Below, one piece after another: positions 1 through 60,907 of a stretch of DNA of 64,000 nucleotides. The position numbers were made by a program, and so were the translations under genes. This DNA is from Lingula anatina (taxonomy: Eukaryota > Animalia > Brachiopoda), in NCBI GenBank assembly GCA_051362555.1, contig CM120641.1:27534401-27598400 (forward strand), given 5' to 3'. Numbering within the stretch: position 1 is the first letter of the stretch; every line of letters begins with the position of its first letter. Under the pieces are notes generated by a model. It did no database searches, was not told the DNA's origin, and saw only the letters and a list, made by a program, of their open reading frames with translations.

Positions 1-114
1 TATCAAGATTTGAAAGGTCGCCATTGATAATCAACAATTTTGCGACTGACATCTACAGTGAAACATTTATTCATTCCACGTTTTTGTTTTTTTTTTTCAC
101 ATCTACTCGAATGA

Positions 115-6100: not shown

Positions 6101-6617
6101 AAGTGCACGCAGTCAAATAATCTAAAGTTTTTTAATTAGTGTCTATTTATATTTTAATATAAAAATATAAAAATATTCTAAATCTTACGTTTCTTACGAT
6201 ATATATATTCGATTAAAAACTTTTTTGCGCCAAGAACAGCAATAGGCAGACTTTTCGGAAAGCACTCATCAATCTTCATGGTATTATTATCTTACTAGAA
6301 ATACTCCTCGCTTGGTGAAGTGGCGATGACCTCGGTAGTATCGGTAGTATTCAGAAGCGTTGTTCTACTGGTGAAGTTGGTGGCGTTTGTTTGCGTACCT
6401 TCGCCAACTTTGAAACAAATGATAAACAAATTTACATTTACACGGCTCTTGTACATAAACTGTTAACAGCACAATCGTGCTTTAAATTAAACGGATTACC
6501 CAAATAAACATGTATTCGATCATATAAAACTAAAGCAGTGAGACTTACTATAACGTGAAAAAATTACCGACTATGGTGTTTTATATGGATGCAAAATGGT
6601 AGAAATATTGCATCCGC

Positions 6618-6649
<32 letters not shown>

Positions 6650-23670: not shown

Positions 23671-23712
<42 letters not shown>

Positions 23713-26700
23713 GATTTAAAAAATGAAGACAATATTTTTGCTTCCATTAAAAAGAACATCAGAGTTAGCACTTTTTCACTTTATAATGAGTCCCACTGTT
23801 TCAGTTTTAAAATGATTTCTATTTCAGTTAATTAAAAAGAGCAGTATAAATGCACATTTGTTTATTATTTGTTTCAAAGTTGGCGAAGGTACTAGTAGGC
23901 TAACAAACACCACCAACCTTACCAGTAGAACAACGGTTCTGAATAAAACCGAGGTCATCTCCGCTTCACCAAGCGAGGAGTATTTCTAGTAAGATAATTA
24001 AACCATGAAGATTGATGAGTGCTTTTCAAAACTCTGCCTCTTGCTGGTTCTGGCACAAGAGAAGTTTTTCAACTAAAACATTCATTCACATATTGCGAAA
24101 CACAGTCAACTTGAAAATTAGTTTATTAATGTTATTAAGTTATTAATTAACTGCAGATCGTTTGACTGCATAAATCGACGCTATCGTCTACGCGTTATTA
24201 CCTCCGACAAATGAGGAGGTAATGTTTTTGTAACCGTTTGTTTGCAACTTCAAAATCTTTCAATTTCGAAGTATGTTGGTCAGTGGGTTAAATTAGTTTT
24301 TAATTTTTTATAAATTATTTAATTATGTACAGATTCTAAGTGCTTTACTGGTTTTATATTTGTAGCCGTAAAGTCCTGGAGATGACTGATGGGATAGAGA
24401 ATTCAGGGGGTCTTAAATGGGACCTTTCCCTGTGTCTTCTGCTGGCCTGGTTGATTGTGTTCCTGGTCTTGATTAAGGGAATTAAGTCCTTGGGGAAGGT
24501 GAGCAAAATGACCTCGTGCACATTAGCTAATATTATGTAGTAGACATGTGATAACCTTGGGTATTTGTACTACGGTAGTAACCAACAGCTGTGCATTTTA
24601 AAAAGTGCATGTATACAACATTGGTCAAACAGGTTGTACATGTCTCATCTCCAATTCCATGTGCTTATATTTACATAGTAGCAAACATAAGCTACGCAGT
24701 AGATACACACGCTATTAGACGCGTGACCTTTTGCGAACACACCCTAATTTTGCTGATTGTTTGTAAATTTGGTGACATTGCATGGCAGTCGTTTAATAAT
24801 CATTCCTTTACCTATGAAGAAAGCACAGTGTAACATCAGATTTGCAGGGGTACATGTTATTTTGAATAAATGGTATAATTTATGGATATCTTCATCGTTA
24901 TGTTGTACATTCTGCACCACTAACGATGTTAGATATGGTATCTGGAATAAAAAGTACTGTTTATAACAAATGACACCCGTGAGATAATGATTTGTAAATA
25001 AAAGCACATGGAATTGGAGGTGGGGCAACCTTTTTGACCAATCTTATTTACATGTATTTATCCCTCCTAAGTTTGGTCAGGTTAAGGTAACTCTATCTTT
25101 TATCCGTATCAGCTGGACTCTATTTCTGTCTCACATAAATCTCTCACATACTCATTTTGTGCAAAAAAAAATACGATTCAGATATCTATTCTGACTAATA
25201 ATAATAATTATTATTATGTAATGGGTGTTTAATCTTGAAAGTAATTATATTTTCTTTATGGTTGAAAGTTTTTTTTTATTTAATGCTTCATTATAATCAC
25301 ATTTTAAAGTTTAATAGTAAATTTTCTACCTGTCTCAGTTTGGTTCCCGTGGTGCAGCAGCGGGTCCTAGAATTTATTTTTCACATATCGTATTGTACAT
25401 AAATAATTCACATGGGGTGTTTTTATTTTTGTCAGTGTATTTTCAGTATTATTCTTCCAAGACAGATTAAAATGCGTTTAAGTGAGATGGCTTCACGTTT
25501 TTTAAGTTACCGAAACAAAAATACACTTAATATATTTTTGTGTTATTCCTTCAAAACAAATGAACGCAGGTACATTTTAAAGTCAGACCGTTCCCGTTTT
25601 TTAAGTTACCAAAAACAAAGATACACTTAATATATTTATATTTTACAGGCTGTTTATTTTACTGCCCTTTTCCCTCATGTCATCTTGGCCATTCTCCTTG
25701 TACGTGGTGTCTTACTGGAAGGATCTGCTGAAGGCATTAAATATTATCTGACGCCTGATTTTAATCGACTTCTAGACTCTGAGGTAATTCTGTGTTCACA
25801 TCTTTTATTATTAAAAAAATTTGGAAAGTCAAACTTAAATATGTATGTACATGTCTTGGTTAAGAATATTACTTAATATTGCGAGAATTTTAATACTACA
25901 CAATCTGGTTGAAAAATTATTGTATTTAATTTTATAATTTAAAACATCTGAAGAATCCTCTACACAATTTCAAGAATGATTCATCACGGGCCGGATGTAA
26001 AGCTTTGGTAGCTTTAATGACTTTTCTGCAATTCGATTAAATGATTGCCTTAGTTTCTACCGTTTTCAAATGTCAGGTGTGGAGTGACGCAGTCGTTCAG
26101 AATTTTTATTCGCTCAGCGTATCTTTGGGAGGCCTGATAGCGATGTCAAGCTACAACAAATTCCACAACAACTGCTTCAGGTAAACTGAGCTGTTTTACT
26201 GAACTCCATTTACTTGTGGGTGTTTTTTTAACATATGTTTTATGAAGACATAGGGGCGAAAGTTAGTTTAGTTTAGAATAATTATACTGTATGTTTGTGT
26301 TATGAAAAAGGTAAATGATCCACATTTAACTTGGACAAGTTACGTTTTGCTTAATCACAAATTTGTTAAGACAGCATTTTGTTAGTAATGAAGCAATAAC
26401 TGTTCATGAAGTGGTAGACGTATCGCAAGCGCAAAAGCAGTATATATATTGGGTTCTTTAACTTTATCTGTAAGATCTAGCAATGATTAAAACAATACAA
26501 ATACATGCCATAATTATTCCTAGGGACGCGCTAATTTGTTCCCTTATGAACTTCGGGACTAGCGTTTATGCTGGATTGGTCATCTTCTCTGTACTTGGCT
26601 ACATGGCGCATATATCTGGGAAAGATGTGGCTGATGTTGCTAGTCAAGGTAAATATATGCCATGTTCCGGTTTTCATTTCAGCAGGTTGCATAGTTTTTA

Positions 26701-29326
26701 CTCAAATACGACACAAAAAGATGCATGCACACGCGCGCGCAAAAATTGATAAAATAAAATTCTTATAAAAGTGATAAATGTCACCATGTTGTTGGCGTTA
26801 ATGTCAAAGTAAGGTCAAACCCTTTTTAGATTAGAAAAAAACGTAAATTTTGCCATTCTGCGCCATGCAATGTGCTCACATAACACAGAGCTTTGGTTAT
26901 TTCAGGCCCTGGTCTTGCCTTCATCGTGTATCCAGAGGCCATATCCCAGATGCCGTTACCGACACTGTGGGCCATTCTGTTCTTCTCCATGATGCTGTTA
27001 CTGGGATTCAGCGCACAGTTTTCTATGGCTGAGACCGTTTTGAGTAGTATAATGGACGAATATCCACATATTCTACGTGTTAGTAAATGGAGGGAAACCA
27101 TCATGAGGGGCGTCGTGTGCGGAGTGTGTTTTCTGCTCGGCCTGCCGATGTGTGCAAGGGTTAGTTTTTTCTTTTTTGTAGGATCCTTTCAAATCATATA
27201 GATGTTCTAAAATTTCAAAATGATTATTTTTATCTGTTTTTGTAATCTGAATATAATGTGTGGTAGGCCTACCAACAATAATTGTCATTTAAACGTAAAT
27301 ATTCTTCGCGTTACTTCACATTGTTAATGGATAAAGTGGGCGAATAGTTGGCGCAATACCGCATTATCCGTATGCATTTTTCATAGCAATATCAACTGTA
27401 TCTCTTTTAAACCTGTGTTCACAGACGCGTATCCTTGACCATTTGTTTTACCTGGCCCTTTGCGATGGAATTCCACCTTATCCCATGAAGAGCCTCATTG
27501 TCAATGTGTTATATCCTGTTTCGTTTAATAGCTATCTTAGCTCAAATAAAAAAATTTAACGCCACACTTACTTTTAATCACACGTGGTTTCAGGGTGGCC
27601 ACTATCTGTTAGATCTAATGGATCACAGTGTTGGAGGGTTCCCGTTGCTGTTTGTTAGTTTATTTGAATGCGCAATACTGCAGTGGGTGTATGGTAAGTG
27701 AGGGGTAATTTGATCTTTTCTTACTCGATTATCTACTCATATACTTGTTTAAATCAGATTACGAAGCGTAAGAAATACATTTTCCGAACGCTGATTAAAC
27801 GTTAGGCATACGCTAAATACGCTTATCCATCGTTACAGAATCGTTCAATACGTTACTCGTTCGCGACCATTACGTTACTTATGCGCTTCGCAAAGGCAAG
27901 CTTTTATCAGTCACCGTATGAGAAAACGTACCTGAACGTAACATAAACGCCATTCTACCTTATGTCTATCGTATCTGTAGCGTATGGATGACGTATGGGT
28001 AGCGTCCAACTCTGACGTTCGAATACGCAAAAAGTTTCGAACATTCTCAAAAAATTCCCTCTACGAAAGTGAACGTACACCAACTTTTACCCGCATACGC
28101 AAAACGTATAGGGTGATTTCATAAGCTCAAAGTTTTGAGTAAAATCAAATCCTTATACTCACTTTTTTACGCTAGATGAGACATAACCTTTACTACGCAA
28201 CGACAGTGCGTGCCTCAGCTAATTGTTTAATCTAATATAGATCATATCATATATTATCAGATTTGCATTAAAGAAACACATCTAGGGATGCCTGTACATA
28301 TTAGGAGGAATTGCCATTAAACCCATAAGCGAATGTGGAAGCTTATGGCATATATTTAATTTCGTTTCATCGCGACTTAAATGTTTTTTGTTTCACTCTA
28401 GGATGGTCCAGGTTTTCTGAGGACGTGAAAATAATGCTTGGCAAGAAGCCTGGTATCTACTTTCGGATCACTTGGTGCTGTTTATCGCCACTTCTTATGT
28501 TGGTAAGTGAACAATGAAAGTGAAAGCTTGGCCGTTAGAATTTATGTATAGTCAGACTTTTTTCATATTTCGAATATTGAAAAGATGTGAGCCAGAATTG
28601 AATTTTAATCTTTCTTTCCACGTCGGAAGTTTGTCTTACCTATAATTACAAGTGCATTCTATTGCAGGCTGTCATAGTATTCAAATTCATTCAGCTGAAG
28701 CCATACATGTATCAAGGCTATACATTCCCTGTATGGGCTCAGGCCATAGGATGGGTAATTGCCTTGACCCCCGTCGTCCTCATCCCTGCCTGGTTCCTGG
28801 GAAGATACTGCTACGATGGCGGCTTCCAGGTTGGTAGCGATTGACAGTAAAATAACAATTCCTTGTTTGCAACTTAAGTTCTACTACTAATATTAACTTT
28901 AAATAGGAGAATTAAGTTTGTTTAAACAAGGGGAACGGAAGAGCGTCGGAACCCATATTCCGTCTTTCATTTTTTCAGTCACGTGCAAGCTCCTTACAGG
29001 CGTAATCAGTTGTTTATAATGTGCACTGTCTATTTTAGGTGAATTACTTGTAGTATATTTGGAAGTAAAGTTTTGACTTATGCCCGGCCAAATATTGAAA
29101 CGCATATCTTGATCAAATTACTTCCATACAGTAATAGATTGTTACGCCATAGTTATACATATATGATTTTTAGACCTTAAAGAGAGCTGGATCACCGCAA
29201 GCTGACTGGGGACCTGCACGTGCAGAAGACCGCGCCGGGACAATCTACGACACGGATTCCAAGGCAAAAACTTTCCATGTCAACGGTACATCCAACCCCG
29301 CCTTTGATCAATACTCATACGAGTAG
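20097..29326 (+). CDS. SLC6 Na+/Cl- dependent amino-acid-transporter-like protein, copy 2 (616 aa, 14 exons)
   Basis: Exons 20097-20111 (MPEEI), 22764-22935, 23119-23250, 23361-23516, 23880-23988, 24366-24498, 25649-25783, 26077-26180, 26524-26648, 26906-27159, 27594-27693, 28402-28502, 28668-28829, 29174-29326. All GT-AG, phases consistent, total 1851 nt; SLC6 TM1-TM12 motifs present. Confidence 0.92.
20549..20720. mobile_element. Terminal fragment of a putative PIF/Harbinger-like MITE (inverted homologue at ~27760-28188)
   Basis: GGTGCTGTCACATCTAGCGTA...GCGTATGAAATCACC matches the revcomp of GGTGATTTCATAAGC...TACGCTAGATGAGACATAACC; absent at the homologous site in copy 1. The superfamily call is tentative. 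Confidence 0.5.
21243..22755 (+). mobile_element. Degenerate L2/CR1-type LINE (RT relic) with (ATT)n tail
   Basis: Relic motifs VLLDLSAAF (~21298), [10 protein letters not shown] (~21425), FADDTQLY (~21525), [11 protein letters not shown] (~21884), HITPILKQ and FKVAAPRE; ends in ~70 nt of (ATT)n. Confidence 0.85.
22262..22476. mobile_element. MITE family A copy nested in the LINE
   Basis: Inverted ends CATTCCCAGAGATTTAGATCGATC / GATCGATCTAAAACCTATGGGAATG; core TAGGCG(G/T)GACAGAC shared with 43214-43405 and ~59495-59670. Confidence 0.65.
23557..23669. mobile_element. Small MITE in intron 4 of copy 2
   Basis: TIRs CCCAGCGAACATAGAACGTT / revcomp CCCAGAAGACACAGAACGTT; absent from the homologous intron of copies 1 and 3. 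Confidence 0.65.
27760..28188. mobile_element. TACG/CGTA-rich transposon remnant in intron 11 of copy 2
   Basis: Dense TACG/CGTA subterminal-type motifs; right end homologous (inverted) to 20549-20630; absent in copy 1. Confidence 0.5.
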
Positions 29327-37259: not shown

Positions 37260-40200
37260 ATGCAGGAAGAAATGGTACGTTACTCACTTTCTTTCTTATA
37301 GTAAAATATACATTGAATGTAACGAATAAATTAAAGTGATGTGGTTTAGATTTATCTTTTTGTTTAATCCTTTGGCTTCGTGTGACTTTTGAAATTATTC
37401 TCTACAAAAGCATTTCAAAATGTTTGTGTCATCATTTTGATAATAATTTATAATCAAGCTAAAAGTTTTGAAAGAAATTATAGGTTTAAGGTACGTGTAG
37501 ATTGGTCGTTACGTAATTAGACGCTCTGCGCAATTTCTGCGCATCGCACATCCTTACCATCCTTACGTGATATATGATTCTGACAATTTTGTAAAATAAA
37601 TTTTCATTCTATGTGAAAAACAAACAGTTCTACCTTTTGTATTTAAACCATGTAATATTAAAGGTTTAAGGAAGATCAGTCGTTACGTAATGTGACGCTG
37701 TGCGCAAATCCTGTGCATCGTCAATCCTTGCCAACGTAGTAATAGCTGATTTTGTCGATTTTGTTAAATAAAACCTCTTTCCGTGTGAAACAAACACCAT
37801 TTTGTCTTTGTATTTATCCCGTGTAATATTAAAAGTTTAACGAGTGTGTTCCATGTGGAAAATGTTGAACGTACATGTTGAACGTACATGGACATGTAGG
37901 CCTATTTGCGGTACAGAACCTGCAGATTCACCATATCAATGCTGTAGTCGTGATTATTGCGAGTAGGGGCCTTCGAAGTGTGTTACGAGCCATATTTCAA
38001 AAACTCTGCCAATTAATCATTAGATATCATACAAGAGACAAATGATTTACTTTGGTATCTCACGCAAACACACAATATCAAACGACGATTTTTTTATTTC
38101 GACCAAAGCTTTTTTTTTCCGCTAGCTAAAAATAGCACACGAGTTTTGCCCCATTTGAGCCAGCATTTACGCCCCAAACATCAAAGAATTGCAGAGAAAT
38201 GAGCATGCATTATATTTCATTACTTGTTCTTAATTTTATTTGAAATAAACATAATGTCATGAGGTAATTTTGTTATGATATCAAAGATTTTAAAAAGCAC
38301 CCACTATTCCATTGATATGAATGGGCATTAGTGCGTCACGCAGGGTCTAATGCACTTCAACTGGGCCTAGTTCACTTATCTGATCAGTGACCCCCATTTT
38401 TTTCCACACGCACCTTCACTGCAGGGGTCTAGCAATTAAACCTCGAAGCCAAAATCGATCCGTGTGGAGGCGGGGAGACCATTGAAGGATTAGGCGGTCT
38501 TGCTTTCATGTAGAGTCCGCCATATTCGACCCGAGGACCAGTAGATCCGAGGATCATCTCTTCTGAATCCGACCTTACTCAAAAAAGAAAATGCAGTTGA
38601 CATAAACCTAAAGTAGCGTCAAATGTCAGTAAATTTACATGTTGAAAATGAACAAATATTAATATATTTCGTAACTTTATGTTTACTTATATGCCGGGTA
38701 TGTTTTATTGATATCAGAACATAACCGTAAACTGATTATCAGATATATATGTTAGACTTAATCCGCACACAATCCGGACTTAATCCGAACGTAATTATGG
38801 TTGTGGCAAGTATCACATAAAAGAACATGAACAACTTGGCCAGTTTTCATAAGGGTCTCTCGTTGTTTATATACAGATTCTTTTTTGGATTCTTTTTCTT
38901 AATCAACTTTCAATGCGGTAGTTATGCGATCTCGACAAACTCCGGCACTTACGGGCCATACCGAACGGGCAGTTAAGCGAATTGGCGGTTCGCATTTTTC
39001 ATTGCGGTGCTCGCAACCACTCATTTTAAGTTTGCACCGTGTATAGAATCGCTGGTTGAGTCGTTAAGTCGGCGTTTGTGATCAGATAACCCGATGCTTG
39101 AAGTCCTATTTCGTTTAAAAGATCTGACATTATCTTTCGTTATCTTTTTTTCATTTCTTTTTTTCTTCTTCTTCTTCTTTTTTACTTAAATAAAGAATAT
39201 TCATTTAAATTAAAAGATAGCATATTTATTCTGGTCAAATGTTACTTTCACATTTTTATCCATTCAATATTGTCGGTTAATTCTTAGGCCCTAAACCAAA
39301 TAAATCCCAATTCTTTTTCTTATTTGTATATTTTAAATAAAGGAACAATCTCACGTACACTTGTGGACAAACATATTTTGTATCGATTTTAATTGATAGT
39401 CTTCACTTGTTATCCTTGAAGGCCGAAGCCTGCGTAGAAATGGGTTGTTTGGACTCAAAGACAGACTCCTTGAAAGACAACAAGCGTCGTACCTGGGGAG
39501 GCCAGTTGGAATTCATTATAACATGTGTCGGCTATGCTGTTGGTCTGGGATCAGTATGGCGCTTTCCGTATCTGTGTTACAGGAACGGTGGAGGTAAGTT
39601 CCATCGGGGCCAAAATCGCAATTTGTACAGCAGTCGTATAAAAATCACGCTCCAAATGCATTAGACGAAGCTACTCTCATTTGTTAGAATTCCGTTAACA
39701 AGTCTATGGTTTAAATAGCGATCTGCATATGCTGATTGTCTGATAACAGGTTGTTTGCTTTTCAGGCGCGTTTTTGATACCATACTGCGTCAGTTTGCTC
39801 TTGGTTGGCCTTCCATTATTCTTCATGGAACTATGTTTTGGCCAGTTTGCCAGTCTTGGGCCTATCACTATTTGGAAAATTAGCCCCTTGTTCAAAGGTA
39901 AGATTCATTTCCTCATTGATGTATTGATGTATAACTTAAATGTAAGCTTTTTGCATACTTAAAACGGGTAATTAGAAGATTACATCCGATACTTAAATTT
40001 TCGTCTCTTATGCTTTAAATGTAGGTATTGGCTATGGGATGATGATGATTTCTTTGTTCATCGCACTTTACTACAACGTAATAATTGCCTACATCCTTCA
40101 CTATCTCTTCGCCTCAATGACGGCTAATTTGCCGTGGTCTGCTTGTGGGAATACGTGGAATACTGACGCCTGTTTAATAGGTCAGCAAATATATACTGTT

Positions 40201-43200
40201 TCGTTTAAGATAATAATAATAATAATAGATAAAAATAGCGAAGACAATATTTTGACCATTTTTGCATCCATTAAACAGAACATCATGGTTGAAACTTTTT
40301 CACTTCATAATGAATCTCACTGTTTTAGTTCTAACGTGATCGAATATATTTGTATAATCCTTTCAGTTTAAAACACATTCGTTTTGTTTTCAGTTAATTT
40401 ATAAGAACGGTATAAATGCACATTTGTTTACTATTTGCTTCAAAGCTGGTGAAGGCACAAGTACACGGACAAACAACACCAACTTAATGAATAGAAAAAC
40501 CCTTCTGAATACTACCGATACTACCGAGGTCATGGCCACTTCACCAAGCGAGGAGTATTTCTAGTAAGATAATCATTCCATGAAGATTGATGAGTGCCTT
40601 TCGGAAAGTCTGCCTCTTGCTGCATTTGGCGCAAGAAAAGTTTTAAATGCAAGACATTGTATATATGCACGAAACAAAGTCAACTTAAAATTAAGATTGT
40701 TTTAACAGTATATGAATAGTTATTAATTTTAAAATATGAATAGTTATTAATTAACTGTAGATTGTTTGACTGCTTTAATCGACGCTATGGTGTACATGTA
40801 GTTTAACAATTGTAGCCGTAAAGTCCTGGAGATGACTGATGGGATAGAGAATTCAGGGGGTCTCAAATGGGACCTTTCCCTGTGTCTTCTGCTGGCCTGG
40901 TTGATTGTGTTCTTGGTCTTGATTAAGGGTATAAAGTCCCTGGGGAAGGTGAGCAACATGGCAGCAAATTAACGCATGTCCTTCCAACTTTCTGTCGATC
41001 CATTTAGTTTGTGTTAAGTGGTGCAGAAGCGGGTTCTAAATGTATTTGTTACCAAGCACTTATAAGTAAAACAATACAAAAACAAGCTGTACATGTACAC
41101 CATGTACCTCGTCTGTTTCCAGGCATCCAACTTATTACTGCTTTTGATGTTAATGTCAGATGTCAGATCGTTCACGTTTTTTAAGTAACCAAAAACAAAG
41201 ATACACTTAATATATTTATCCTTTACAGGCTGTTTATTTTACTGCCCTTTTCCCTCATGTCATCTTGGCCATTCTCCTTGTACGTGGTGTTTTACTGGAA
41301 GGATCCGCAGAAGGCATTAAGTATTATCTGACGCCTGATTTTACTCGACTTCTAGACTCTGAGGTAATCATGTTTTCATTTCTTTTATTCTTAGAATTCT
41401 ATTCAATGGTGATGTTATCCTTGGTCGCTTTAATGACCTTTGTGTGAAGGTTATGATTGCTTTAGTTTCTACTGTTTTTAATCGTCAGGTTTGGAGTGAC
41501 GCAGTCGTTCAGAATTTCTATTCGCTCAGCGTATCTTTGGGAGGCCTGATAGCGATGTCAAGCTACAACAAGTTCCACAACAACTGCTTCAGGTAAACTG
41601 AGCTGTTAAACAAATTCTTACTATTCAATATCTGTTTACAATTGAATTATGCCTGTTTTTTGGTTTTAAACTTCTTTTAAAGCTTAAATAAGGAAAAATT
41701 GAATGAGCATATCGATAAACATCAAACTTAGACATAGTAAGTTTAATATGCATTTTTGTTAAGACAATAATTTGTTAGTAATAAAGCACGAACTCAACGG
41801 GCGCGGAGTGGAAGACGTACGGCAAGCACTAAAGCTCTAAAAGTTTGATGAAGTGAATAAATGTTGGCTTACTTTAAATTTATCTGTAAGATCTAACAAT
41901 GTATAATATAATACAAACACATGGCACGATTATTCCTAGGGACGCACTAATTTGTTCCCTTATGAACTGCGGGACTAGCGTTTATGCTGGATTTGTTATC
42001 TTCTCCGTGCTTGGCTACATGGCGCATATATCTGGAAAAGATGTGGCTGATGTTGCTAGTCAGGGTACGTGTGTTTGTATGTCAAGTTCAGGTTTTCATA
42101 ACATCAAGATGGTCTGTACTTGAAACAAGAGTAAAATGCAGGCACGAGATGACGCACGCGCGCATAAATGATACAATAAAATACACATAATGATGAATGT
42201 TACCATGTCGTTGGCGTTGGTCAAAGTACCCTTTTCAGAAAAGAAAAAAATGTAAATTTTCCCATTCAGTGACTTGTGGCATTCTCACTTGGAGTAAACG
42301 TAAGATAACACAGTGTTTTGTTTCAGGCCCTGGTCTTGCCTTCATCGTGTATCCAGAGGCCATATCCCAGATGCCGTTACCGACACTGTGGGCCATTCTG
42401 TTCTTCTCCATGATGCTGTTACTGGGATTCAGCGCACAGTTTTCCATGGCAGAGACCGTTTTGAGCAGTATAATGGACGAATATCCACATATTCTACGTG
42501 TTAGTAAATGGAGGGAAACCATCATGCGGGGCGTCGTGTGCGGAGTGTGTTTTCTGCTCGGCCTGCCGATGTGTACAAGGGTTAGTTTTTTTTTTTTTGT
42601 AGGATCTTTTCAGGTCGTATAGGTATTTGAAATATCAAAACGATTATATTGATCTGTTTACGTTATTTGTTATAGAAAGAAATCATATGTCACTTCTCGC
42701 CACAAAAATCCCAGATGTGCTATCCCCGGCCGTGTATTAAGTGACAGTTATGCCACCCCCGGCCGTGTATTAAATGACAGTTACATGTATGCCACTAACA
42801 TATTAAATCCTAAACAAATTTTATTGAAATCATATATAGTTTAAAAATATTTCGAAACTAACAAGGAAAGTGTAGCACATATTGCCTTTACTTTTCGTAT
42901 GGTTTCAGGGTGGCCACTATCTATTAGATCTAATGGATCACAGTGTTGGAGGTTTCCCGTTGCTGTTTGTTAGTTTATTTGAATGCGTAGTTCTACAATG
43001 GGTCTATGGTAAGTAAGGGGTATTTTTTTCTTGTTTCTCGGTAACCTGCTGTTTGATAGTGTTCAAGGTTAAAGGTATTCAATATCTTTTACTATATGAG
43101 TATTTTATTTCATCTTGTATAAAGCACCTAAATACAGAAAAATTAATGGCAGAAGTGTTTGGTCAGTTGCACCAATATAGCTTGATTTCCCGGGCTGTCT

Positions 43201-44764
43201 TCTGAGACTAAAGGACTGGGTTCCCGTGCCGAGATCGATCCATCTGGATCGGTCTAACTCCCTTACTCCTTTAATTATCTTTACCCCGTAGCTGATTCGG
43301 TAGGCGTGACAGACATTTAAGCAGGTTAGCTGGTAGCAATTTAGTGAGACTCCCCAGGGAGTTAGACCGATCCAGATGGATCGATCTAGGCATGGGGACC
43401 CAGTCTAGCTCTGTGCTAGAGTAATCATTGGGGCCAGTGTGATCTGGTTAACAGTTAATGCTGATTTCTGGAAAGCGAAGCACGACGTTATGATAACGTC
43501 AAGATACCTTACTACGTAATGACAGTGCGTGCGTCAGTTATTTGTTTAATCTGATATAGAAATTATATGATTAGTACTGAAGTAACACGTCTACCGACTC
43601 ATATTGGGAGGAATTGGTGTTAAAATCATGAATCGAATATGTACGCTATAATAAATTAATTTTTTTTCATCGTTACCTACATGTATGTATTTTTTTTCAC
43701 TCCAGGATGGTCCAGGTTTTCTGAAGATGTGAAAATAATGCTTGGCAAGAAGCCTGGTATCTACTTTCGGATCACTTGGTGTTGTTTATCTCCACTTCTT
43801 ATGTTGGTAAGTGAACACTGGTAATAAAACCTTAACCGTTGAATGTGAGATGCAAATGCTGTTTTTTTTTTGTTTTTTTTTAATTTCCAATATTGCAAAG
43901 ATGAAAAACCGTAATTGAAATTGGCCTTTTCTTTCCTAGCCGAAGGTTTGTCTTACCTACATGTATAATTACATGTACAAGTGCATTCTTTTGCAGGCTG
44001 TCATTGTATTCAAATTTATCCAGTTGAAGCCATACATGTACCATGGCTATACATTCCCTGTATGGGCTCAGGCCATAGGTTGGCTTATTGCCTTGACCCC
44101 CGTCGCCCTCATCCCTGCCTGGTTCCTGGGAAGATACTGCTACGATGGCGGCTTCCAGGTTGGTGGCGATTGTTGATAACGAAAGCAACTACGCCTTGTT
44201 CACACTTATATTAAAATATTTTGTATTTTCAGTGAAGCTATTGGCATCTATAAGTCGGAAACGACATTGTCGCATTTAGTGGATTGAATATCGATCGCCC
44301 CATGCAGATACAGCTTTTAGATCTTATCAGTTTCATTCGTGTCCATCTCTTTCTTGTTTTGCACTTGAGTTTCTACGCCTTATATCAACTTTGCGTAGGA
44401 AAATAAAATAAGATTTAAACAAGGGGCACTGTAAGTCTGGTAGACCGTATTTCGTTTTCTCAGCCACGTGCTTTTCAATAGAATCTCTAGGTAAAGTAGT
44501 ATACTGGTAAGTACTATTGTGATTTATTCCAGACCAAATATTCAAATGTGTGACCTCATCAGATTACTTCCATATATTAATACGCCAAAGTAACATGATG
44601 TATGATTTTAGGCCTTGAAAAGAGCTGGATCACCGCAAGCTGACTGGGGACCTGCAAGAGCAGACGATCGCGATGGTACAATATACGACACAAAATCCAA
44701 GGCAAAAAATCTCTATGGCAACGGTACGTCCAACCCTGCCTTTGACCAATATCCATGCCAGTAG
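37260..44764 (+). CDS. SLC6 amino-acid-transporter-like protein, copy 3 (619 aa, 14 exons)
   Basis: Exons 37260-37274 (MQEEM), 39422-39593, 39766-39897, 40025-40180, 40446-40563, 40816-40948, 41229-41363, 41489-41592, 41940-42064, 42327-42580, 42909-43008, 43706-43806, 43997-44158, 44612-44764. All GT-AG, total 1860 nt, in frame. Confidence 0.92.
37490..38575. mobile_element. ~1.1-kb insertion in intron 1 of copy 3 with internal ~180-bp tandem duplication
   Basis: Flanks align to the copy 2 intron 1 but the insert does not. It begins after TTAA (GGTACG...) and ends ...CCGACC-TTA; 37480-37668 is repeated at ~37660-37840. Confidence 0.5.
43214..43405. mobile_element. MITE family A, near-perfect ~48-bp TIRs
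   Basis: GACTGGGTTCCCGTGCCGAGATCGATCCATCTGGATCGGTCTAACTCCC ... GGGAGTTAGACCGATCCAGATGGATCGATCTAGGCATGGGGACCCAGTC. Confidence 0.85.
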
Positions 44765-45709: not shown

Positions 45710-46145
45710 CGGTGGGGTGAGTCCAGTCCATAAGAGGGGTGTTGGTCGGATTGATTTCATCCCATAGGAGGGGTGTCAGGTGGGGCGAGTCCATTTTATA
45801 TGAGGGGTGTCAGGTGGGGCGAGTCCATTCCATGCAAGGAGTGTCAGGTGGGGCAAGTCTATTACATTGGAGGGGTGACAGGTGGGACAAGTCCATTCCA
45901 TTCGAGGGGTGCCTGGTGAGAGTCTATTACATTGGAGGGGTGACAGGTTGGTCAAGTCCATTACATTCGAGGGGTACCAGGTGAGGCGAGTCCATTACAT
46001 TGGAGGGGAGACAGGTGAGACGACTCCATTACATTTAAGGGGTGACAGGTTGGTCGAGTCCAATCAATGGGGAAAGCCTATTCCCTTGGAGGGGTCTCAG
46101 GTTGGGCGGGGCTATTCCATTTACGGGGTGTGTAAGGTGGGGCTT
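45710..46145. repeat. G-rich minisatellite, ~28-29-bp unit, roughly 14-15 degenerate copies
   Basis: Consensus approximately GAGGGGTGACAGGTGGGGCGAGTCCATTACATT. Confidence 0.85.
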
Positions 46146-49845: not shown

Positions 49846-51615
49846 TTATTCGTAGGAATATTGATCAAATGCAGGGTTGGATGAACCATTGCCATAGAGC
49901 GCTTTTGCCTTGGATTTTGTGTCGTACTTTGACCCTTCGCGGTCTTCCGCATTTGCAGGTCCCCAGTCAGCTTGCGGTGATGCAGAGCTCTTCAAGGCCT
50001 AGAAACGAAACATACACATAATATTAAAAAACTAAACTATTAAATCTTAAAAATTAGGATAAGTTTTATTTGTTTGTGTTAAAATATCGTCGTTCAATAT
50101 CAATCGCCACCAACCTGGAAGCCGCCGTCGTAGCAGAATCTGCCAAGGAACCAGCCGGGGATGAGGGCGATAGGAGTAAATGCAATCATCCATCCCATGG
50201 CCTGGGCCCATACAGGGTAAATGTAGCCCTGGTACACGTGTGGTTTCAACAGAACGAACTTGAATGCTATGACAGCCTGCAAAGAAAACATGAGAAGGAT
50301 ACAGGACATCAAGAGGAGGGACAATCCCCAGGGAACCGTTTACGTATTGTGTATTATATAAATTTGCGGCAAAACAATGCCAAATTTGAAGAAAAGTTCA
50401 GATTTTAATCAGTTTTCTACATTTTTATCCTGCGTTCTTCACTTTCGAGTTACAAATGACTAAACTACTGTAATGCTATTTTTGCAACATGGGCAGCTGT
50501 CTTAAAACTGACTGACAATTCAGTAGCAGCTTGCTACACGTAGTAAGACATTTAAACTGACATGGTAACTGTATTTCCACCAGTAAAGTTCTCAGAGTCA
50601 CTTACAAACATGAGAAATGGTGAAACGTAAACCCACATAATCCGGAAATATATGTTAGGTTTCTTGCCAAGCATCATTTTGACGTCCTCAGAAAACCTGT
50701 CCCATCCTAGAAGAAAGAATTTTTTTAAAAAAAATCTGATTAACTTATTCGATAAATGAAACTGGAAGCCCAAGTCACTAGAGAGCAAATAATAGTAACA
50801 GTCATAATGACCATAATAGAAAAAATACAAATCTGGTGAAATCCTACATGTTAAAGGGCGGTTGATCGAAAATGGCACGTCAATGAGGAAACGACACATA
50901 CCATAGACCCACTGCAGCACTATGCATTCAAATAAGCCAACAAACAGTAGCGGGAAGCCGCCAATATACGTGTCCACTAAGTCAAATAGAAAATGACCAC
51001 TCTGGAAATCGAAAAAAAATACATATAAAGAGCATAATAAGCGGACACCAGTAGCATTTACAAAGAAAGGTTTCCCCATGTCCAATTTACGTGTTAAAAT
51101 TTCATTAAATAACAACAATATTCAAAGACAACATTATATAGTTATATTAATTTTTTTCTATTCCATTCGTACCCTGTGAATTAAAGATGCCTGTAATCTG
51201 TATAAATAATGGAATTAAAGAGAAACAATATGAAGTGCATAGACTTACCTTTGTACACATGGGCAAACCGAGCAAGAAAAACAATCCACACGCGACACCC
51301 CGCATAAGGATTTCCCTCTTTTTATTAACGCGTAGAATATGTGCGTAATCATCCATTATGCTGCTCAATACGCATTCCACTATGGAGAATTGGGAGCTGA
51401 AACCTAGCAGCATCATCATGAAAAAGAACAGAATGGCCCACAGTGTCGGTAACGGCATCGTGGATATGGCCTCTGGATAAACGATGAAGGCAAGACCAGG
51501 ACCTGAAATATGGCAATCACAAATCTTTGCAAAAATTCTAAAACAAAATATCACTTGCAATTCCACAACCATTTTCTCTTAAATTATGTCCTTCAAGTAA
51601 TGACGAAACTCCCGT

Positions 51616-51666
<51 letters not shown>

Positions 51667-54600
51667 TTTGCAGCGGGATGAATTCTGATCCCTTCAGTTA
51701 AACGGCATACTATTTTTTTTACTTCTGTTGCACAACTATTTTACATGTACCACTTACCCAACGTCTCGGGTGGCTTTCTTTTACAGGCACACGTTAAATC
51801 GAATAAATGAATCACTCAGCATCTTTACTGTTTGTGGTCTTAATTTTTTTCTATATCCAAAAAATCATAAGAATTTCATATTGGCAAACAGGACTCAACG
51901 TACCTTGACTAGCAACATCAGCCACCTCTTTACCAGATATATGCGCCATGTAGCCAAGCACGGAGAAGATAACAAATCCAGCATATATACTTGTGCCACA
52001 GTTAATAAGAGGCACAATCAGAGCGTCCCTAAGAATATACAGTCAATTATAAATATGCAATTCGTCAATGCATCATTGATTTGCGTAAAGGCTTGGAGCA
52101 ATACAAAGTCAAATAACACAGCAAATGACCACTGCATTCAACAGAAAAACAACTATGTTAGCCACTCAAAAGGTGTTTTTTAAAAATACATTTAAAAAAA
52201 TGTTAAGCAAATAAACATGTTAAGATTTAGTAAATGGTTAGATTAAATATGGTCAGATAAATACTGTAAGTAGTTCTATTAAAGCCTCAGCGATAGGACA
52301 AATAATATGCAGGTATTAAAAAAGAACAGAAAAAAAGCAGTCAACGGCAATGGTGAAGTACCCGATGAAGATATATATAATAATTACAGAACTTGATTAC
52401 TATACAACGTTTACAGTGCATGACATTTAAAGCAAAGTGCAAAACAAAACATGCAAACTCATGCAAATTATATAAAGGATATGTACGTCAAATCAGATTG
52501 ACTAAAGAGGAGGGAGATTAAGAGGGACAGGCAAGCCCAAGCCATCGATTTCATATCCACACGAAGTGTGGTAAAATATCCATACACAAGTACCCAGGTA
52601 TCCATTCACATAATATTCAAAGAGAATTAATCCCCTATGCATGCATGATTATAGGTATAAAAATCAAACCAAACCATGCTAAGTCTATCAAAAAAAAGGG
52701 TAAATTCCACCTAAATAAGGTACATCCCAATAGTCTGACATGGGACAAACGTTGTACTGTATTTCACAGTCCAGTCTACCTGAAGCAGTTGTTGTTGAAT
52801 TTGTTGTAGCTTGCCATCACTACCAGCCCTCCTGAGCATGCGCTGAGAGAATAAAAAATCTGAACGACTGCGTCACTCCATACCTGGCAGGTATAAATGA
52901 TAAGAACCAAGTCAACCAGGTCTACTCTAACATAAACTTATTGAAGATAAAAAAATATAAAGAACCATTTTATCATAATTTGTGCTTGCTGGATCTTATT
53001 TGGTATAATTTTCATCATGGCTAATTTTGTCTTTACGGGTCTCTTAGTATAACTTCAATCTATTGGTTGCCGTGATCTTAATCAAAATATTATTTAGATG
53101 TAACAGATCTGCATCAAGATGCACGTACACATAGCATTCCCTTGAACACATCACTGTTTGATAAAGGAGGTATTGGATTATGCCGCTGAAAACTTCCCTT
53201 GAAAGATTTAAAGACATCACAAAGAAGTGTCTTTTCTGTTTTTTTTTTTTCTATTTAAAACTTTTTTCATAAAAATAAATATATGAGGACTAAGAGAATT
53301 TGAACGATACATGTACATTACTTTATACGGACTTTGACAACACTTTTTAAGTCAACTTCTTTTGCTATTTTGTTTTTCAAATGATTCATAGATTTTAAAC
53401 AATCATTTCTTAACGCTGTATTGGCATCTCAGTGCTTTTTGTACACCATATAAACATGTGAAAAATATGAGGATGTGAAACAACGATAAAGAGGCAGGTG
53501 ATAGTGACCAAATGTATAGGTGATGTTGCAACTGTGCTGATGACAAAACAAACACTCGATCACGTACGGTGACAAAAATGATATGTCGTGAAGCAAACAA
53601 AAAGAACACTACGTTTTGCTGAGTCATGCCGGATGTGTTTTATATTACAAATTGATTGTGCTCAAACAGGGAGATGGGAGGAAGTGACATGCTGCGCGGC
53701 AAGTAGTCAAAATACGGTAAAACAAGAGCATTTTCAACAACGCGTCAAGCAGGCCAATACCTGAATGCGTTCGTACGAAATTTGTTAAAGCTAGCCATGG
53801 TTATCAGTCCACCAGAGGAGACACTTAGTGAATAGAATATTTGAACCACTGCGTCGCTCCAGACCTGTTAAAACCAACATGTTAGTATCTTTACGTGTCT
53901 GATATACACTAATTAAAAACTGTCATTCGTTTCGCTTTTTTCGTCTTTTTCTTTCTTCCGTTTCATATTCCCTATCAGTGTCGTCGATGGTGAAATTGCC
54001 TTTGTAAACAGAAAAAATGCTTTTGTTTGATCACATTTTTATGTCACACTATCTATACCCAAGTTTACTAGGAAATAATTTTGCGTACTTCACGGAAATA
54101 TCACTTTTTTATTTGCGTTTGAATGGAATGGGCTAGAAAGTAGTCTGGTGTGTAAAGGGGATTGCACCTGAAACGTAATAAAATAGCAACTTCTTGCCAA
54201 CTTCTCCATTGCCGTTTTCTCGCCATACCGTTTGTGTGTAGGCCAGTCAAAGAAACATGGCTGCCCGCTTTCTGCCGCAACTTGAATCATTTACCTGTAG
54301 CAGTTATTATGGAATTTCCCAAAACTAGCCATTACGATCAAACTTCCTGCACACACACCCAAAGAGTAGAATACTTGAACACATGCGTCGCTCCATACCT
54401 ATTGTAAAGTCCAAATCTTCAAGTATTGAGGAAGATTAACCTTGACATGCCATCCTCGGGAGGAAAACCATGTGCAAGGTGCAGGAAAGCCAAGACGGCT
54501 TCATCAGCGACACGATACAGTTAAGTCAAAGTTTGTTCAAGCATAAACCAAGCATATATGTATCTTTTTGCTGGGTTACTTTTGGGAGACGCCTCTACAC

Positions 54601-57600
54601 ACATAATTTAGAACAAACCCATGCCATTTACTTTTTAGTATATACATATATAGACGGTTGAATATGGGACTAGGCATACAGGCAAAACGTACATTGCTCA
54701 AGACATTTTGCTTATCGATTGTTTTTTACTTTTAAATACTTTAAAGTATACATTTGAAAGATAACCATCATACAATGTTTGGAACAGTAAACATAAATAC
54801 AAGTTTTAAGAACTTTATCTTATCCATATTAGCTGATACACAAACGAAAGCATTACCTCAATGTCTGCAAGACGTGTAATATTAGGCGACATGTAATATC
54901 GAATGCCTTCAGCAGATCCCGGCAGCAAAGCGCCGTTTACAAGGAGAATGGTAAGGATGATGTAGGGAAAAATGGCGGTGAAATAGACAACCTAAAAACC
55001 AAATAAAGTTATCTGTTTGACCGAAAACGAAAAAGTTTGAAAGAAGTAAGTTTTCTTAAACATCCGTTAATCTTGGTACGCAACTTTTTGTGTTAATAAT
55101 GAAAAGAAGGTTATTTAATGAATATATATTACAAAAACATTCTATCACTATGCTATTAATCTAGAACGACACAGTGAGAAGATGTCAGGAAAATTCTGAG
55201 GGGGAAGTGGATGAGAGAGATTATTTTGTGAATGTTTTTTAGTACATCCCAGTACGTGAAATGACTCACTTTCCCTAGGGACTGGATTCCCTTGATCAGG
55301 ACCAGGAACACAATCAACCAGGCCAGCAGAAGACACAGGGAAAGGTCCCATTTGAGACCCCCTGAATTGTCTATCCCATCAGTCATCTCCAGGACTTTAC
55401 GGCTATAAGTAAACAACCATGTGCAAAGTATAGGGTATATGTGTAACAATCCAGTAGTGATTTTATATCTTTTTTGACCAGACTCTCAATTATAGAATTT
55501 TTATTTTGAGTAGATACTAAATGGTAAAAGATGAGATGCATCTTTTTTGGAAGACATAACAATAAAATGTTATCTTACTAGAAGTATTCCTCGCTGGGCG
55601 ATATACGGGAACTGGTATTGGTAGCGTTCATAAGCATTGTAGTCATTGAAGAACTAGCAGTGGTGGTCACTGCAGAACTGACAGTTGTGGTCATATTGGT
55701 CGTGTTCGTCGAAACGCCTTGGCCAACTTAAAATTGGTTGAAATTTTTTCAAGATTTAAAAATAAAGATTAAGATAAGTACGAATATATTATCAAAGCAA
55801 TGTATTACACCCTCGCAAACTTAATGAATGGGAACTTGAAAAACCCAATGTAACCATAATGCACATAATTTTAATTAAAAGGCCTGACATCATTTCATGG
55901 CTTTAAAATGTTTACTCTGACTCCCCCTTTTTTAATTTGTGTTCCAAAAAATCCATTGGCATGAGCTACAGAGCGGATCTCTTCCATGTCATTACCTTCT
56001 AAGCAATCTTTAGTGTTCCAAGGATTCCCACAAGAAGACCACGGCAAATTGGCCGTCATGGAGGCGAAGAAGTAGTAAATACAGTAGGCAATGATAACGT
56101 TGTAGTATAGACCCATGATTAGAGACACCATCACCATGGCATAGCCGAGACCTGAAGAAACGCAATGTGGGGTTTTAAAATCATTTTTTAAAATAAAAAT
56201 GACTAAAAGTGTACTACTTTTTTTTTCACGAATGTACAGTACTCATCTTGCCAATACCCGTTCGCTTATTAACTCCTGTCTTTGTGATGTTGAGCAAAAC
56301 AGAAATTGGTGAGAAAAAGCGGCATGAACATGAACATGAACATTTATTATCTTTATATTATTGATTATTAAATAATTACAATACACAACGTGTGTGCGGG
56401 GGGGGGGGGGCAATTCATACTTAGGCAAATAAACGAGATACTCCGCAGCTGAATATAGCTTAATAAAGATAACCTACCTTTAAACAGTGGACTAATTTTC
56501 CAAATAGTGATAGGCCCAAGACTGGCAAACTGGCCAAAACAAAGTTCCATGAAGAATAAGGGTAGACCCACAAATGCCAAGCTGATGCAGTATGGGAGAA
56601 TAAAGGCTCCTGGAAATAGAAGGATACTGAGCAACAATATGTCACACGGCTGTCATTAATTCAATTCAGAGAGGTGTTTCTTCTTAACATCTACTCACAA
56701 TACTTAATCACTGAATGTTAGAGATAGTTACAAAATTTCAACAGAGTAACGACAGCCCTTAAAGCATTTCAAGCTTAATTATCAAATAAGTTTGTTACCC
56801 GTATTGCGGTAGTTGAGATTCGAGTCCCAAATTGGCTTACCTCCACCGTTCCTGTAACATAGGTATGGAAAGCGCCATACATTTCCCAGACCTACGGCAT
56901 AGCCGACACAGGTTAAAATAAACTCTATCTGGCCCCCCCAGTTACCGCGCTCATTCAATTCACTCGCCATAAGATCAGCTTGAGAGTCTAAGCGACCCAT
57001 GTCGGCGTCAGCCGCGGCTTCCAATTCTTTGGAGACCGAGTTCACCGTGGTGGGTTTTCCCTGGAAAGAAATTTTGTTTTTACAACTATATTACAACTAG
57101 AAAAGTTGTCATAAGTGGCCCAAACTCGCTTTGTTTCGATATATAGATATATCGTTCATCTTTAATATAAACACTTTTGAAGTGGTATTACATGTATCGT
57201 TGGTTTCATCGTTTCTTAGATGAAGATATAAAAAAATCTCATGGTTTCATCATACTACTCATATTGATCCGCTCCCTATCTGTCACAGTTTAGATCAATG
57301 AATTTGAGAACCATCACTGCCTCCACATGCCCTTTCAATACCGTTATCTTTATTCATGTAAGACATGATTTGAAGTGCACCGCAAACATGTGACGTTATA
57401 TAGCCAAAGTACCATTTGAATCTGTCGACATTCTGAAGAGATGCATTTTGCATACAATACGCTGCTCGTCCCGTTCCAAACCGCAGCCGTGAGACCGAAT
57501 TTATCAACACAGATACTACACAGTTGTCCGTCTGTCAGCACTTGTTGACTAGGGTGATAAGAACGCTCAAATTGCACGCAATAAAGTTGTCAGTTTATGG

Positions 57601-60600
57601 AGACTATTCACGGGACAATAGCATAAAAACTACTTTTTAAATCTATATGATTTTTTATCGACCGTTGACATTCAAAAATTAAGAGATGAAATGTCATGAA
57701 ATACTACTTATGAAGGTTATATTCTCAATTACGCCAGTTAAAGACTTACTCATAAAAAAGTAATGGAAAAAGAAAGAAAAAGGAAAGCCAAAGTTTTTTT
57801 CATTCGTGTGAGTGAACATATTGCTACTGAACTTCTGTTTTTCGTTTCAACTGCTTTTTCTTGGGGGGGGGGGGGGGAGGATTCCGGATAAAGGGTTGGA
57901 AAACGTGGGAAAGATAAAAATAAAATAAATTAAATATATATGCTTGAAAGTTAAAATAAAAAATATATATCAAGCACTTTTTAATTGTTATTTATAAGTG
58001 TGCCATGTCGTTTTCGTTTAATACGCAATCTATTTTACTGAATAAATGACAGCAACACGCTTTCTTCATTTTCTCTTCTATTTTCATTACTGTGAAACAC
58101 AGGTCACGGTGCTTGGATTTCTTCGAGTGTCCTTTCAATAAGCCATAAGTAGCCTCAATAAATAACTTCCTTGGGCCAAGCTAATTCTAGCATGTAATAA
58201 ATAGATAAGACGTTAGGACTTGTGTAAGAACGTGTGCAAAAGCAGAGATGATAAGCTTAATCCTGACTATTTAAATCAGTGTTTGAAAAGGTGGAAAAAC
58301 TGACCATGCTATATTGACAAATTGACACGATGACAAACAGTGTGTTCCATACTTTTGAGCTTAAGAGAGGGTTTGTGGAGTTTCTACTGCCGCCAGTTAC
58401 ACCTAATTCCAGATATGCCTCTACACTTCACTGTACATGCCCCATTCTTGTAGCGATGCTTACTCAGAGTATTTACAATTTATACTTTTTGCAAAAAACA
58501 TAGAAAGTGTACTGAAGGACACTTGGCGTTACTAAGCGTGTTTCCTTTGCCTTCTACCCCAGTACGTGCAGCTACATGTACGAAGTCACTTTTCCCATCT
58601 AAATAAAATGACGGCAACTCACCACGCAGATTCTTATGACCTTGTTTACCTCGATTTCCATCACCAAATCAGTTTTCGTACTGTAAGAATCAAATTACGC
58701 AATCACTCGGTGAAAAGTGATAAACTCATTTTCAGCCGAAGAAGCGTCAAAGCGTGCGCCGTGCGATTTGTCACAAATAGAAATTGTGCCATGAACTTCA
58801 GTGATAGGGCCAGGTTGATGGGATTTTATTTTTGCCGTGAGCGAGTAGAATGTGAGAATATTCTCAGCACAAAAAGTTAAATTAAATAAACGATTAATTT
58901 AGCGAACGCATCCATAAGACAAAACATGATGAATCTAACTTCACCTGGTTCGTCGGAGGGTTTTATTAGTGCTAGAAAATATTACGCAATCACTCTGAAA
59001 GTAGTGATGAACTCAATCCCAACCAAAGAAGCGTCAATGGGTGCTTCATGTAAATTGTTCACCAAAAACAAATGCAAGGTTTAATTTCATTATGGGGTCT
59101 ACAAGGGGAATCCCAAGCGGAAAGTATCTTGAGTAGTTACGTGAGTCCTGACAATTTTGCCTTTCTTACACACAATATACTCATTTGATATCACCTTGAT
59201 TTTCGTCGTCATACATGTAAAATGTAGTATAAGCTACTGAATGCCCCGATGTTAGTGTGCATTTAGTGAGCCTTCCGTTGCATCTATACGGTATATAAAT
59301 TGAATGGTATATAAATTCCAAAATGAAATGTTTAAAGTGTATATACATATTAATACTGTTCTTAGTGACTCCTTTACACCTCTTTCTCGAGTCACCTATG
59401 CCAAAACTTCTAGAGCCACACCCCTTTTGTTGAATAGAACCCATCACCAATGGTAAAGAACAATGTGTCATTATTATTATAATGATAAGATAAGACTGGG
59501 TTCCCATTAACCTAGCGTACCAGCAGGATCGACATAACTCCGAGGGGGATTCTTGCATTCAGTTTAAGCGGTTTAAATGTCTGTCACGCCCATTGAAGCT
59601 GCTAAGAGGGTAATTACCTTTCGCGCATGCTTAAGCTGAATTCAATTTAGTGAAATCCCCTCGATCCTGTTAATACGATAGAGTTATGGGAATGATCCCT
59701 AAGTTACAGAGAGAAACTTTATCAACCAAGGATCCGTTTGTAAGCACCCCATCAACATATGTCAAACCCCCTGTCAGGGGAAAAAGGAAAAGACAATAGG
59801 AAGAAAGTTCCGACAAAAAGGTCTCATCATGACCTTCATTTAGCATAATAACCTGATATAAAATCATCCGTAACCATTCAAAGTGCGTAGTGAAAACAAT
59901 GACAATATGTCCGTTGTCTTTGGATTCTGTTGACAGCTTTATGTAAAAACATCTTTGGAAATTGATATACTCGACTTGCACACGGAAAAAATAATTCTGA
60001 TAAGACTTTTTAATTCTGCTTTATGTGGCATCACTAATATCAAAGGTTAAAGTAGAAAAGATTGAGAAAAAAGTCGAAAAAATGAAAAAGAACATAAAAA
60101 TTGCAATTCAACAACAATTTCACATTTAAGAGACGGATATAAAAAGGGTTAAACAAAAAAAAAAGGGAATGAAAAAGTCCAAATTCGAATGTGCAGTCAA
60201 ATATTTAATGTTACTATTCTCAAGAAAATGTACAGGTTGAGTTTAGATACCAAGTCCCTAACTATTAATTTTATTCAGTAGATAATATCTAAATTTAAGC
60301 CAAACATATGCTACAATCTTTTGCAGTAACACAACTCACGCCTATGAACCTTTTTTTACCAATTCAGTTGTGACAAGATTTAGATTTATAATCGCTTGTG
60401 AAAAACGGCACTTACACAGCTCAATTTTCATGTGGCATCACAGATATCAAAGGTAAAGTTAAAGTAAGAAAAGTGACTAGACAACATAAAACAATGTAAT
60501 TCAAAATCTATTTCACGTTGAAGAGAGGGTTGAACCTAGGGTTGAACAAAAAATTGCTTAATCTTGTCGCGCAAAGGAATGAAAAAATCCTCAAATTGTT

Positions 60601-60907
60601 CAGCAGAAAAAATCAAAATTTTACACAATACTTTTGTGCTTTTCTTTAAAGTTGGAATCTCAATTGCTTTAACATTGCGTTGATACCTTTAAAAGTTTGG
60701 GAAACCTAACCTCAGTGTCAGCCAAGTCACCGACCCCGTATAAATGCCACGATAAAGAACTCATTAAAAAGCAGCCGCAAACAAAAACGTGGCGTAAAAA
60801 ATGAAAAGACAAACCTTCTTATCATTATTTCAAGAACACATATACCCTAATTTTGAAATAAGAAAAGGAGAAAAGAAGATACCAGTACTCACGTTTTCTG
60901 CCTCCAT
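49846..60907 (-). CDS. SLC6 Na+/Cl- dependent amino-acid-transporter-like protein, copy 4 (645 aa; three alternative TM6 exons)
   Basis: Exons 60893-60907 (MEAEN), 56841-57060, 56478-56609, 55996-56151, 55579-55726, 55270-55402, 54857-54991, one of [54295-54398 / 53761-53864 / 52780-52883], 51904-52028, 51249-51502, 50902-51001, 50606-50706, 50115-50276, 49846-49998; total 1938 nt. Canonical [24 protein letters not shown] and [10 protein letters not shown] motifs. Confidence 0.93.
51615..51669. repeat. (TTTA)n microsatellite
   Basis: ~13 tetranucleotide units. Confidence 0.9.
52780..52883 (-). CDS. Alternative TM6 exon 8c of copy 4
   Basis: cag|[34 protein letters not shown](R)|gtagac; 104 nt, no stops. 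Confidence 0.9.
53761..53864 (-). CDS. Alternative TM6 exon 8b of copy 4
   Basis: cag|[34 protein letters not shown](R)|gtattg; 104 nt, no stops. Confidence 0.85.
54295..54398 (-). CDS. Alternative TM6 exon 8a of copy 4
   Basis: tag|[34 protein letters not shown](R)|gtaaat; 104 nt, no stops. Confidence 0.85.
59495..59670. mobile_element. Degenerate MITE family A copy in intron 1 of copy 4
   Basis: Starts GACTGGGTTCCC like 43214; core TTAAATGTCTGTCACGCC is the revcomp of the 43302-43320 core. Confidence 0.6.

Follow-up and report, generated by a model that had tools for sequence, protein, structure and literature searches.

The locus studied here raises the question of how a single transporter gene carrying three consecutive versions of one transmembrane exon could employ just one of them per mRNA. 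The gene is located in a 64,000-nt stretch of genomic DNA of the brachiopod Lingula anatina (the window; all positions refer to it unless a locus is named), where it occupies positions 49846–60907 on the minus strand. It corresponds to RefSeq protein XP_013390656.1 (P0001): the peptide encoded by its exon 10 is 100% identical to that protein, and the gene model with exon 8c equals a 620-aa suffix of it. XP_013390656.1 carries the PF00209 (SLC6) domain and is similar over its full length to solved members of the SLC6, or neurotransmitter:sodium symporter, family, and human GlyT1 (SLC6A9) matched the Lingula protein with an E value of 2.6e-186, identifying the gene as a GlyT-like amino-acid transporter gene of this family. 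The first coding exon was read by eye at 60907–60893 (minus strand). Here the window encodes MEAEN in place of the MQAEN of RefSeq, and at 57060–57030 TTVNSV in place of TTVSSV, indicating that the window stems from a different allele or assembly.

Between constitutive exons 7 (54857–54991) and 9 (51904–52028), the minus strand contains three exons of 104 nt encoding transmembrane segment 6 (TM6): 8a (54295–54398), 8b (53761–53864), and 8c (52780–52883). Exon 8c is the copy of the RefSeq model, from which 8a and 8b are absent. All three share length and phase, have intact splice sites with AG/GT ends, and are identical to each other at 69–73 of 104 nt. Inclusion of any one of them yields a reading of 620 aa, counted from the second Met, while skipping, the three double inclusions and the triple inclusion (all 5 combinations) run into a stop at 296–343 aa. 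Only single inclusion therefore preserves the reading frame, as in frame-dependent exclusivity. Between the copies, pS was 0.78–0.93 and pN 0.15–0.23 (0.19–0.23 for exon 8a); with synonymous sites saturated and pN low, the copies must be old and under purifying selection. Two simple routes to exclusivity were ruled out. The introns between the TM6 exons measure 430 and 877 nt, which excludes steric hindrance; about 400 nt separate the 8a donor from the TACTAAC at 53881–53887 (minus strand), a branch-point-like motif before 8b. Incompatibility of U2 and U12 splice sites was dismissed as well, as the donors (gtaaat, gtattg, and gtagac) are unlike the U12 donor consensus.

Three SLC6 paralogs are located in the same window, at 106–7569 (minus strand), 22758–29323 (plus strand), and 39416–44752 (plus strand), each with a single 8c-like TM6 exon (QNFYSLSVS). 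Their TM6 exons are identical to 8c at 89–91 of 104 nt and to 8a or 8b at 66–76 of 104 nt, so that the triplication is likely older than the gene duplications, with the paralogs having retained the 8c type. The paralog at 106–7569 has a premature stop 4 codons before its end and a partial match to exon 7. By eye, a degenerate tandem repeat with units of about 37 nt was noticed at 45740–46100, between two tail-to-tail SLC6 genes.

Transcript evidence was sparse. RefSeq contains just the 8c form of this gene, as a cluster of one member, and three RNA runs gave 7, 0, and 2 reads on 51880–55010, none of them with an exon joint. A loose end common to 6 RNA reads turned out to be the exon 9–10 junction of the paralog at 39416–44752 and was discarded; the RNA reads of run X12 derive from this third paralog. 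In a DNA run from one other individual (X4), contigs span all three exon copies, and 8a shows 0 differences whereas the neighboring 420 nt of intron show 7, an observation of little weight. We regard it as very improbable that 8a and 8b are dead or arose through misassembly, which would leave the helix described below nothing to regulate. Such an explanation could point to the missing RefSeq annotation of both exons and to a decaying TM6 copy in the related locus L037 (496–600), but the exon copies of Lingula have kept their amino acids and splice sites although their synonymous sites are saturated, are identical to each other at no more than 69–73 of 104 nt, and, with the weak weight just given, are found with an unchanged 8a in a second individual.

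To see what an exchange of the exon would mean for the protein, we aligned it to GlyT2. The TM6 exon spans the positions of F476, S479, and W482, all part of the substrate pocket. At the S479 position 8a encodes Gly, whereas 8b and 8c both encode Ser; the W482 position is Ala in 8a, Ser in 8b, and Ser in 8c. According to PMC13273173, F476Y together with S479G enables sarcosine transport by GlyT2, and changes of W482 let larger amino acids in, Trp keeping the pocket small. None of the three exons encodes the Trp at 482 that marks the glycine-specific GlyT1 and GlyT2. With Ala or Ser at this position, strict glycine specificity is unlikely, and the protein probably carries a wider range of amino acids than the RefSeq name implies. 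By analogy with the GlyT1/GlyT2 data, the isoforms may differ in substrate range, and the choice of a single exon would retune the pocket, as 8a places Gly at S479 and 8b or 8c places Ser there. The human GlyT1 (SLC6A9) and GlyT2 (SLC6A5) belong to the same SLC6 family. Their Gly/Ser difference at 479, which in humans separates two genes, separates exon copies of one gene in Lingula, 8a on one side and 8b/8c on the other.

The initial annotation of this DNA had pointed to a 17-nt intronic duplex that might direct the choice among the three exons. The arm following 8a, arm A (54200–54224, minus strand; core 54216–54200), reads AACGGCAATGGAGAAGT in its core, and the arm following 8c, arm B (52330–52359, minus strand; core 52359–52343), gives AACGGCAATGGTGAAGT as the reverse complement of its core. 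The cores form 16 Watson-Crick pairs out of 17 positions with a single A-A mismatch, as claimed, at an energy of -23.3 kcal/mol. The short flanking matches that had been noted are likewise present: 5 additional pairs extend the helix to 54224–54200 × 52359–52336, at about -28 kcal/mol. Arm A starts 79 nt downstream of the 8a donor, in agreement with the earlier estimate of about 80 nt, and arm B ends 315 nt from the exon 9 acceptor. As proposed, 8b and 8c both lie within the 1840 nt that would be looped out by the pairing. This position corresponds to that of a docking-site system of the downstream type, in which an upstream exon is followed by a selector and the last exon by the docking site complementary to it. 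Among all helices with an 8-bp Watson-Crick seed within 57100–49800, A × B ranked first.

An origin of the arms from a transposon or inverted repeat was rejected, since no other copy exists in the window: a search of the 64 kb for either arm with up to 3 mismatches returned a single 3-mismatch match. Rfam gave 0 matches at E values up to 1. Both arms are missing from the three paralogs with a single TM6 exon, which says little because their introns cannot be aligned with those of this gene. Other inverted matches of 16/17 occur in the window at 12981/13038, 13927/13992, 17338/17458, 24620–25026, 32141/32225, and 43227/43376, all with arms within about 400 nt of each other; at 24620–25026 two arms are nested, so that this match may represent a small inverted-repeat element.

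To determine if the helix exceeds chance, we compared its energy with those of shuffled introns, the check suggested in the initial annotation, and with real sequence of the same geometry. With seeds permitting G-U pairs and windows of 25 nt, A × B was reached in 4 of 1200 shuffles (0/300 in an earlier round with the same method) and equalled by none of 286 other real segments. With 7-bp seeds and windows of 23 nt, which clip the A × B helix, shuffling of the two introns reached its energy in 9 of 600 cases, as did 7 of the 286 real segments; when any of the six intron pairs was allowed, 6/120 shuffles reached it. Any 16/17 match, unfiltered for energy, appeared in 37 of 1000 shuffles of cluster size and in 46 of 300 of gene size. 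A × B hence exceeds chance with a p value of roughly 0.003–0.025 for this geometry, a real but moderate significance that varies with the method, and of about 0.02–0.05 if six intron pairs are allowed.

The helix is also favorable in folding. In a partition-function fold of 54560–52280 the A-B pair had a probability of about 1.0, bearing in mind that global folds of 2.3 kb take no account of co-transcriptional folding or proteins. After subtraction of opening costs the net energy of A × B was -14.9 kcal/mol, with both arms fairly accessible; the mean paired probability of arm B in its local fold was 0.29. Among 144 real segments of 877 nt, A was the top non-self partner of B.

These results bear on an explanation to which we assign an appreciable minority share of the probability, namely that the three exons are true alternatives and the duplex is a product of chance, exclusivity being brought about by protein splicing factors together with decay of frameshifted double inclusions. 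The frame alone eliminates every combination other than single inclusion, and PMC5740500 notes that frames are incompatible in many clusters of mutually exclusive exons. The 6/120 shuffles over six intron pairs, the 7/286 real segments obtained with the shorter windows, and a related locus (L023, see below) whose exon is duplicated without any significant helix fit this explanation as well. It is opposed by the full-length windows, in which 0/286 real segments and 4/1200 shuffles matched A × B, by the location of the helix in the geometry that the docking model predicts with fairly accessible arms, and by a second pair of a flanking and an internal intron that is likewise an outlier.

This second pair was found when all six intron pairs were compared. 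Two of the six were significant, both combining a flanking with an internal intron, while the other four were unremarkable (32 to 195 of 300 shuffles). It comprises a candidate upstream docking element before 8a, Ud (54460–54484, minus strand), and its predicted partner before 8c, Ds (53119–53142, minus strand), a candidate downstream selector of 8c. Ud × Ds (54484–54460 × 53142–53119) has an energy of -26.9 kcal/mol, crosses A-B, and would loop out 8a and 8b. Shuffles equalled it in 1 of 300 and, in a larger set, 6 of 1200 cases; of 271 other real segments, 1 did. Both of its arms are locally folded and poorly accessible, leaving a net energy of -3.8 kcal/mol, and the stem did not form in the fold, even with A blocked. 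In run X4 a variant at 53125 affects a base that is unpaired in this candidate stem, which carries little weight; the X4 contig covering arm A has 0 of its 7 differences in that arm, which is uninformative as about 0.3 would be expected there. Three further pairings were dropped on their net energies: 54496–54475 × 54284–54263 (+1.7 kcal/mol), 54520–54502 × 53989–53971 (-4.6 kcal/mol), and 54108–54086 × 53595–53574 (-6.9 kcal/mol).

A docking site would be expected to have competing partners, and a weak candidate for an 8b selector, S2 (53180–53200, minus strand), pairs with 52349–52330, overlapping the site of arm A. By hybrid energy S2 was not significant (34/250 and 136/300 shuffles). When accessibility was included it exceeded all of 93 shuffles, a null that is lenient, as the control intron reached 5 of 75. 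Against real sequence with accessibility, 5 of 141 other segments were equal or better, placing S2 in the top 4%; the B window for this comparison was picked once S2 was already known. In a fold with A forced open, B paired with S2 instead. These data speak to the idea that the helix is functional as a mere silencer, hiding 8b and 8c or blocking double inclusion, and is not one of several competing selectors. B having one strong partner, the weakness of S2, and the position of arm A at 79 nt from the 8a donor would suit such a role. We nevertheless consider it improbable, given that B shifts to S2 in the fold when A is blocked, that S2 ranks as high as it does among real segments, and that 8c, the form modelled in RefSeq, could never be included if the helix were permanent. 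The docking-site/selector reading in the initial annotation is partly supported: the triplicated exon and the geometry of the helix are upheld, and the helix exceeds chance and is accessible, whereas the second, competing selector, by which the mechanism is defined, stays a weak candidate.

Taken together, we favor with some confidence a model in which B acts as a downstream docking site and A as the selector of 8a, within three TM6 exons that are likely mutually exclusive. According to this model, pairing of A with B in the pre-mRNA would reduce the 2266 nt that separate the 8a donor from exon 9 to an effective distance of about 400 nt and hide 8b and 8c in the loop, so that 8a would be spliced in. 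More tentatively, S2 (53200–53180) might compete for the B site and select 8b, and 8c might be included if B stays free or 54484–54460 × 53142–53119 forms. Messenger RNAs with zero, two, or three copies would be shifted in frame and removed by nonsense-mediated decay.

The cluster is likely a new case of the class with downstream docking sites. PMC6071210 and PMC4691838 describe such control for Drosophila 14-3-3zeta, Mhc, MRP1, and Dscam1 clusters 4 and 9. These have tandem homologous exons with a selector after the first exon and a docking site after the last, and pairing loops out the later exons, as predicted for Lingula. Lingula differs in being a brachiopod, in the gene being an SLC6 transporter, and in having a single strong candidate selector. 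The two significant pairs of Lingula, both flanking × internal, match the enrichment of this kind of pair, as opposed to internal × internal pairs, that PMC6071210 gives for the class. In exon 4 of Drosophila serpent (PMC4691838), two crossing stems, one from the upstream intron and one to the downstream intron, each favor a different exon, and the candidate Ud-Ds stem would cross A-B in a similar manner; Lingula has three exons instead of two, and its upstream stem is unconfirmed and poorly accessible (net -3.8 kcal/mol). Outside insects, competing long-range intronic pairings around duplicated exons are found in human ATE1 exons 7a/7b, which, unlike Lingula, comprise two exons and five conserved, experimentally tested elements (PMC7797038). 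The tested cases of docking type that we found come from arthropods and a few vertebrate genes, and the mechanism itself is known. In a mostly open-access literature, no report was found of docking sites in a brachiopod or of an SLC6 gene whose TM6 exons are mutually exclusive; the main texts of PMC9013439, PMC9741552, and PMC5740500 do not mention SLC6, and their supplements could list such genes. What Lingula would add is a regulated exon that encodes a substrate-pocket helix and has been duplicated in other lophotrochozoans as well. If the docking reading is correct, splicing exchanges this helix at the residue separating GlyT1 from GlyT2. The two predicted isoforms with 8a and 8b are unannotated, and the set of isoforms is open to direct testing of uptake specificity.

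Evidence for alternative TM6 exons was obtained from the nemertean Lineus longissimus, whose RefSeq isoforms X1 and X2 (XP_064646770/771; 630 aa each) differ in 12 residues, all inside the TM6 exon. Among the Lingula copies, the X1 exon is nearest to 8c (29/35) and the X2 exon to 8b (28/35), and the two carry Ser and Gly, respectively, at the S479 position. This was the sole pair from the same gene among 251 retrieved proteins with usable flanks. The exon swap in Lineus, together with the frame logic, lends indirect support to one exon per mRNA in Lingula. In a survey of metagenomes covering 79 loci from the best 80 of 176 matches, many of them short or intronless, 6 of the 79 loci had two TM6 hits. 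Four of the six were tandem genes and were set aside; the remaining two, L023 and L037, have duplicated TM6 exons and resemble Watersipora protein P0156. In L023 both exons are intact (1056–1160 and 1284–1388), 123 nt apart, with Gly and Ser at the S479 position, and the first is identical to the exon of Watersipora P0156; at 31/35 identity between the copies, a separate and recent duplication is suggested. In L037 the first copy is the decayed one mentioned above, its splice sites being retained.

A helix between the middle and downstream introns was unremarkable in both L023 (171/200 shuffles; the locus ends 266 nt past the second exon) and L037 (137/200). Between its upstream and downstream introns L037 has a perfect 14-bp helix (323–350 × 1102–1127; 0/200 shuffles) that would loop out both copies. 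No orthologous intron alignable to that of Lingula was present among the 79 loci. A quick tree was built from 49 proteins, chosen by hand from 320 and stripped of their TM6 exon; in it, the genes of Lingula, the nemertean, Watersipora, Owenia, and Capitella grouped together with an SH-aLRT of 84, which is weak support. Common ancestry and convergence would both fit the TM6 exon duplications of these relatives.

On this basis a wider proposal can be made, which we put forward as speculative and hold to be rather doubtful: a three-way RNA switch (A-B for 8a, S2-B for 8b, Ud-Ds for 8c) would produce three transporters with distinct pockets, within a repeated lophotrochozoan duplication of TM6 with a Ser/Gly split. 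If so, brachiopod, nemertean, and bryozoan-like animals would have made the same move repeatedly at the position of GlyT1/GlyT2 selectivity, pairing-directed exon choice would extend to lophotrochozoans, and the isoforms would represent a natural domain-swap series for SLC6 selectivity.

Some further observations were made on proteins of these relatives. A 648-aa oyster model (P0270) was rejected as a double-TM6 protein, as it does not have two TM6 exons. The Tubulanus polymorphus proteins P0018, P0133, and P0150 were rejected as isoforms, being separate paralogs. They are near-identical and in tandem, with TM6 exons identical at 22/35 compared to 28–30/30 in the flanks; this divergence could stem from alternative exons having been lost, or being used, differently among them. 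Finally, P0161 and P0245 of the annelid Owenia fusiformis show 11 residue differences confined to the next exon (TM7), which suggests a duplicated and alternative TM7 exon beside the pocket in the same subfamily.
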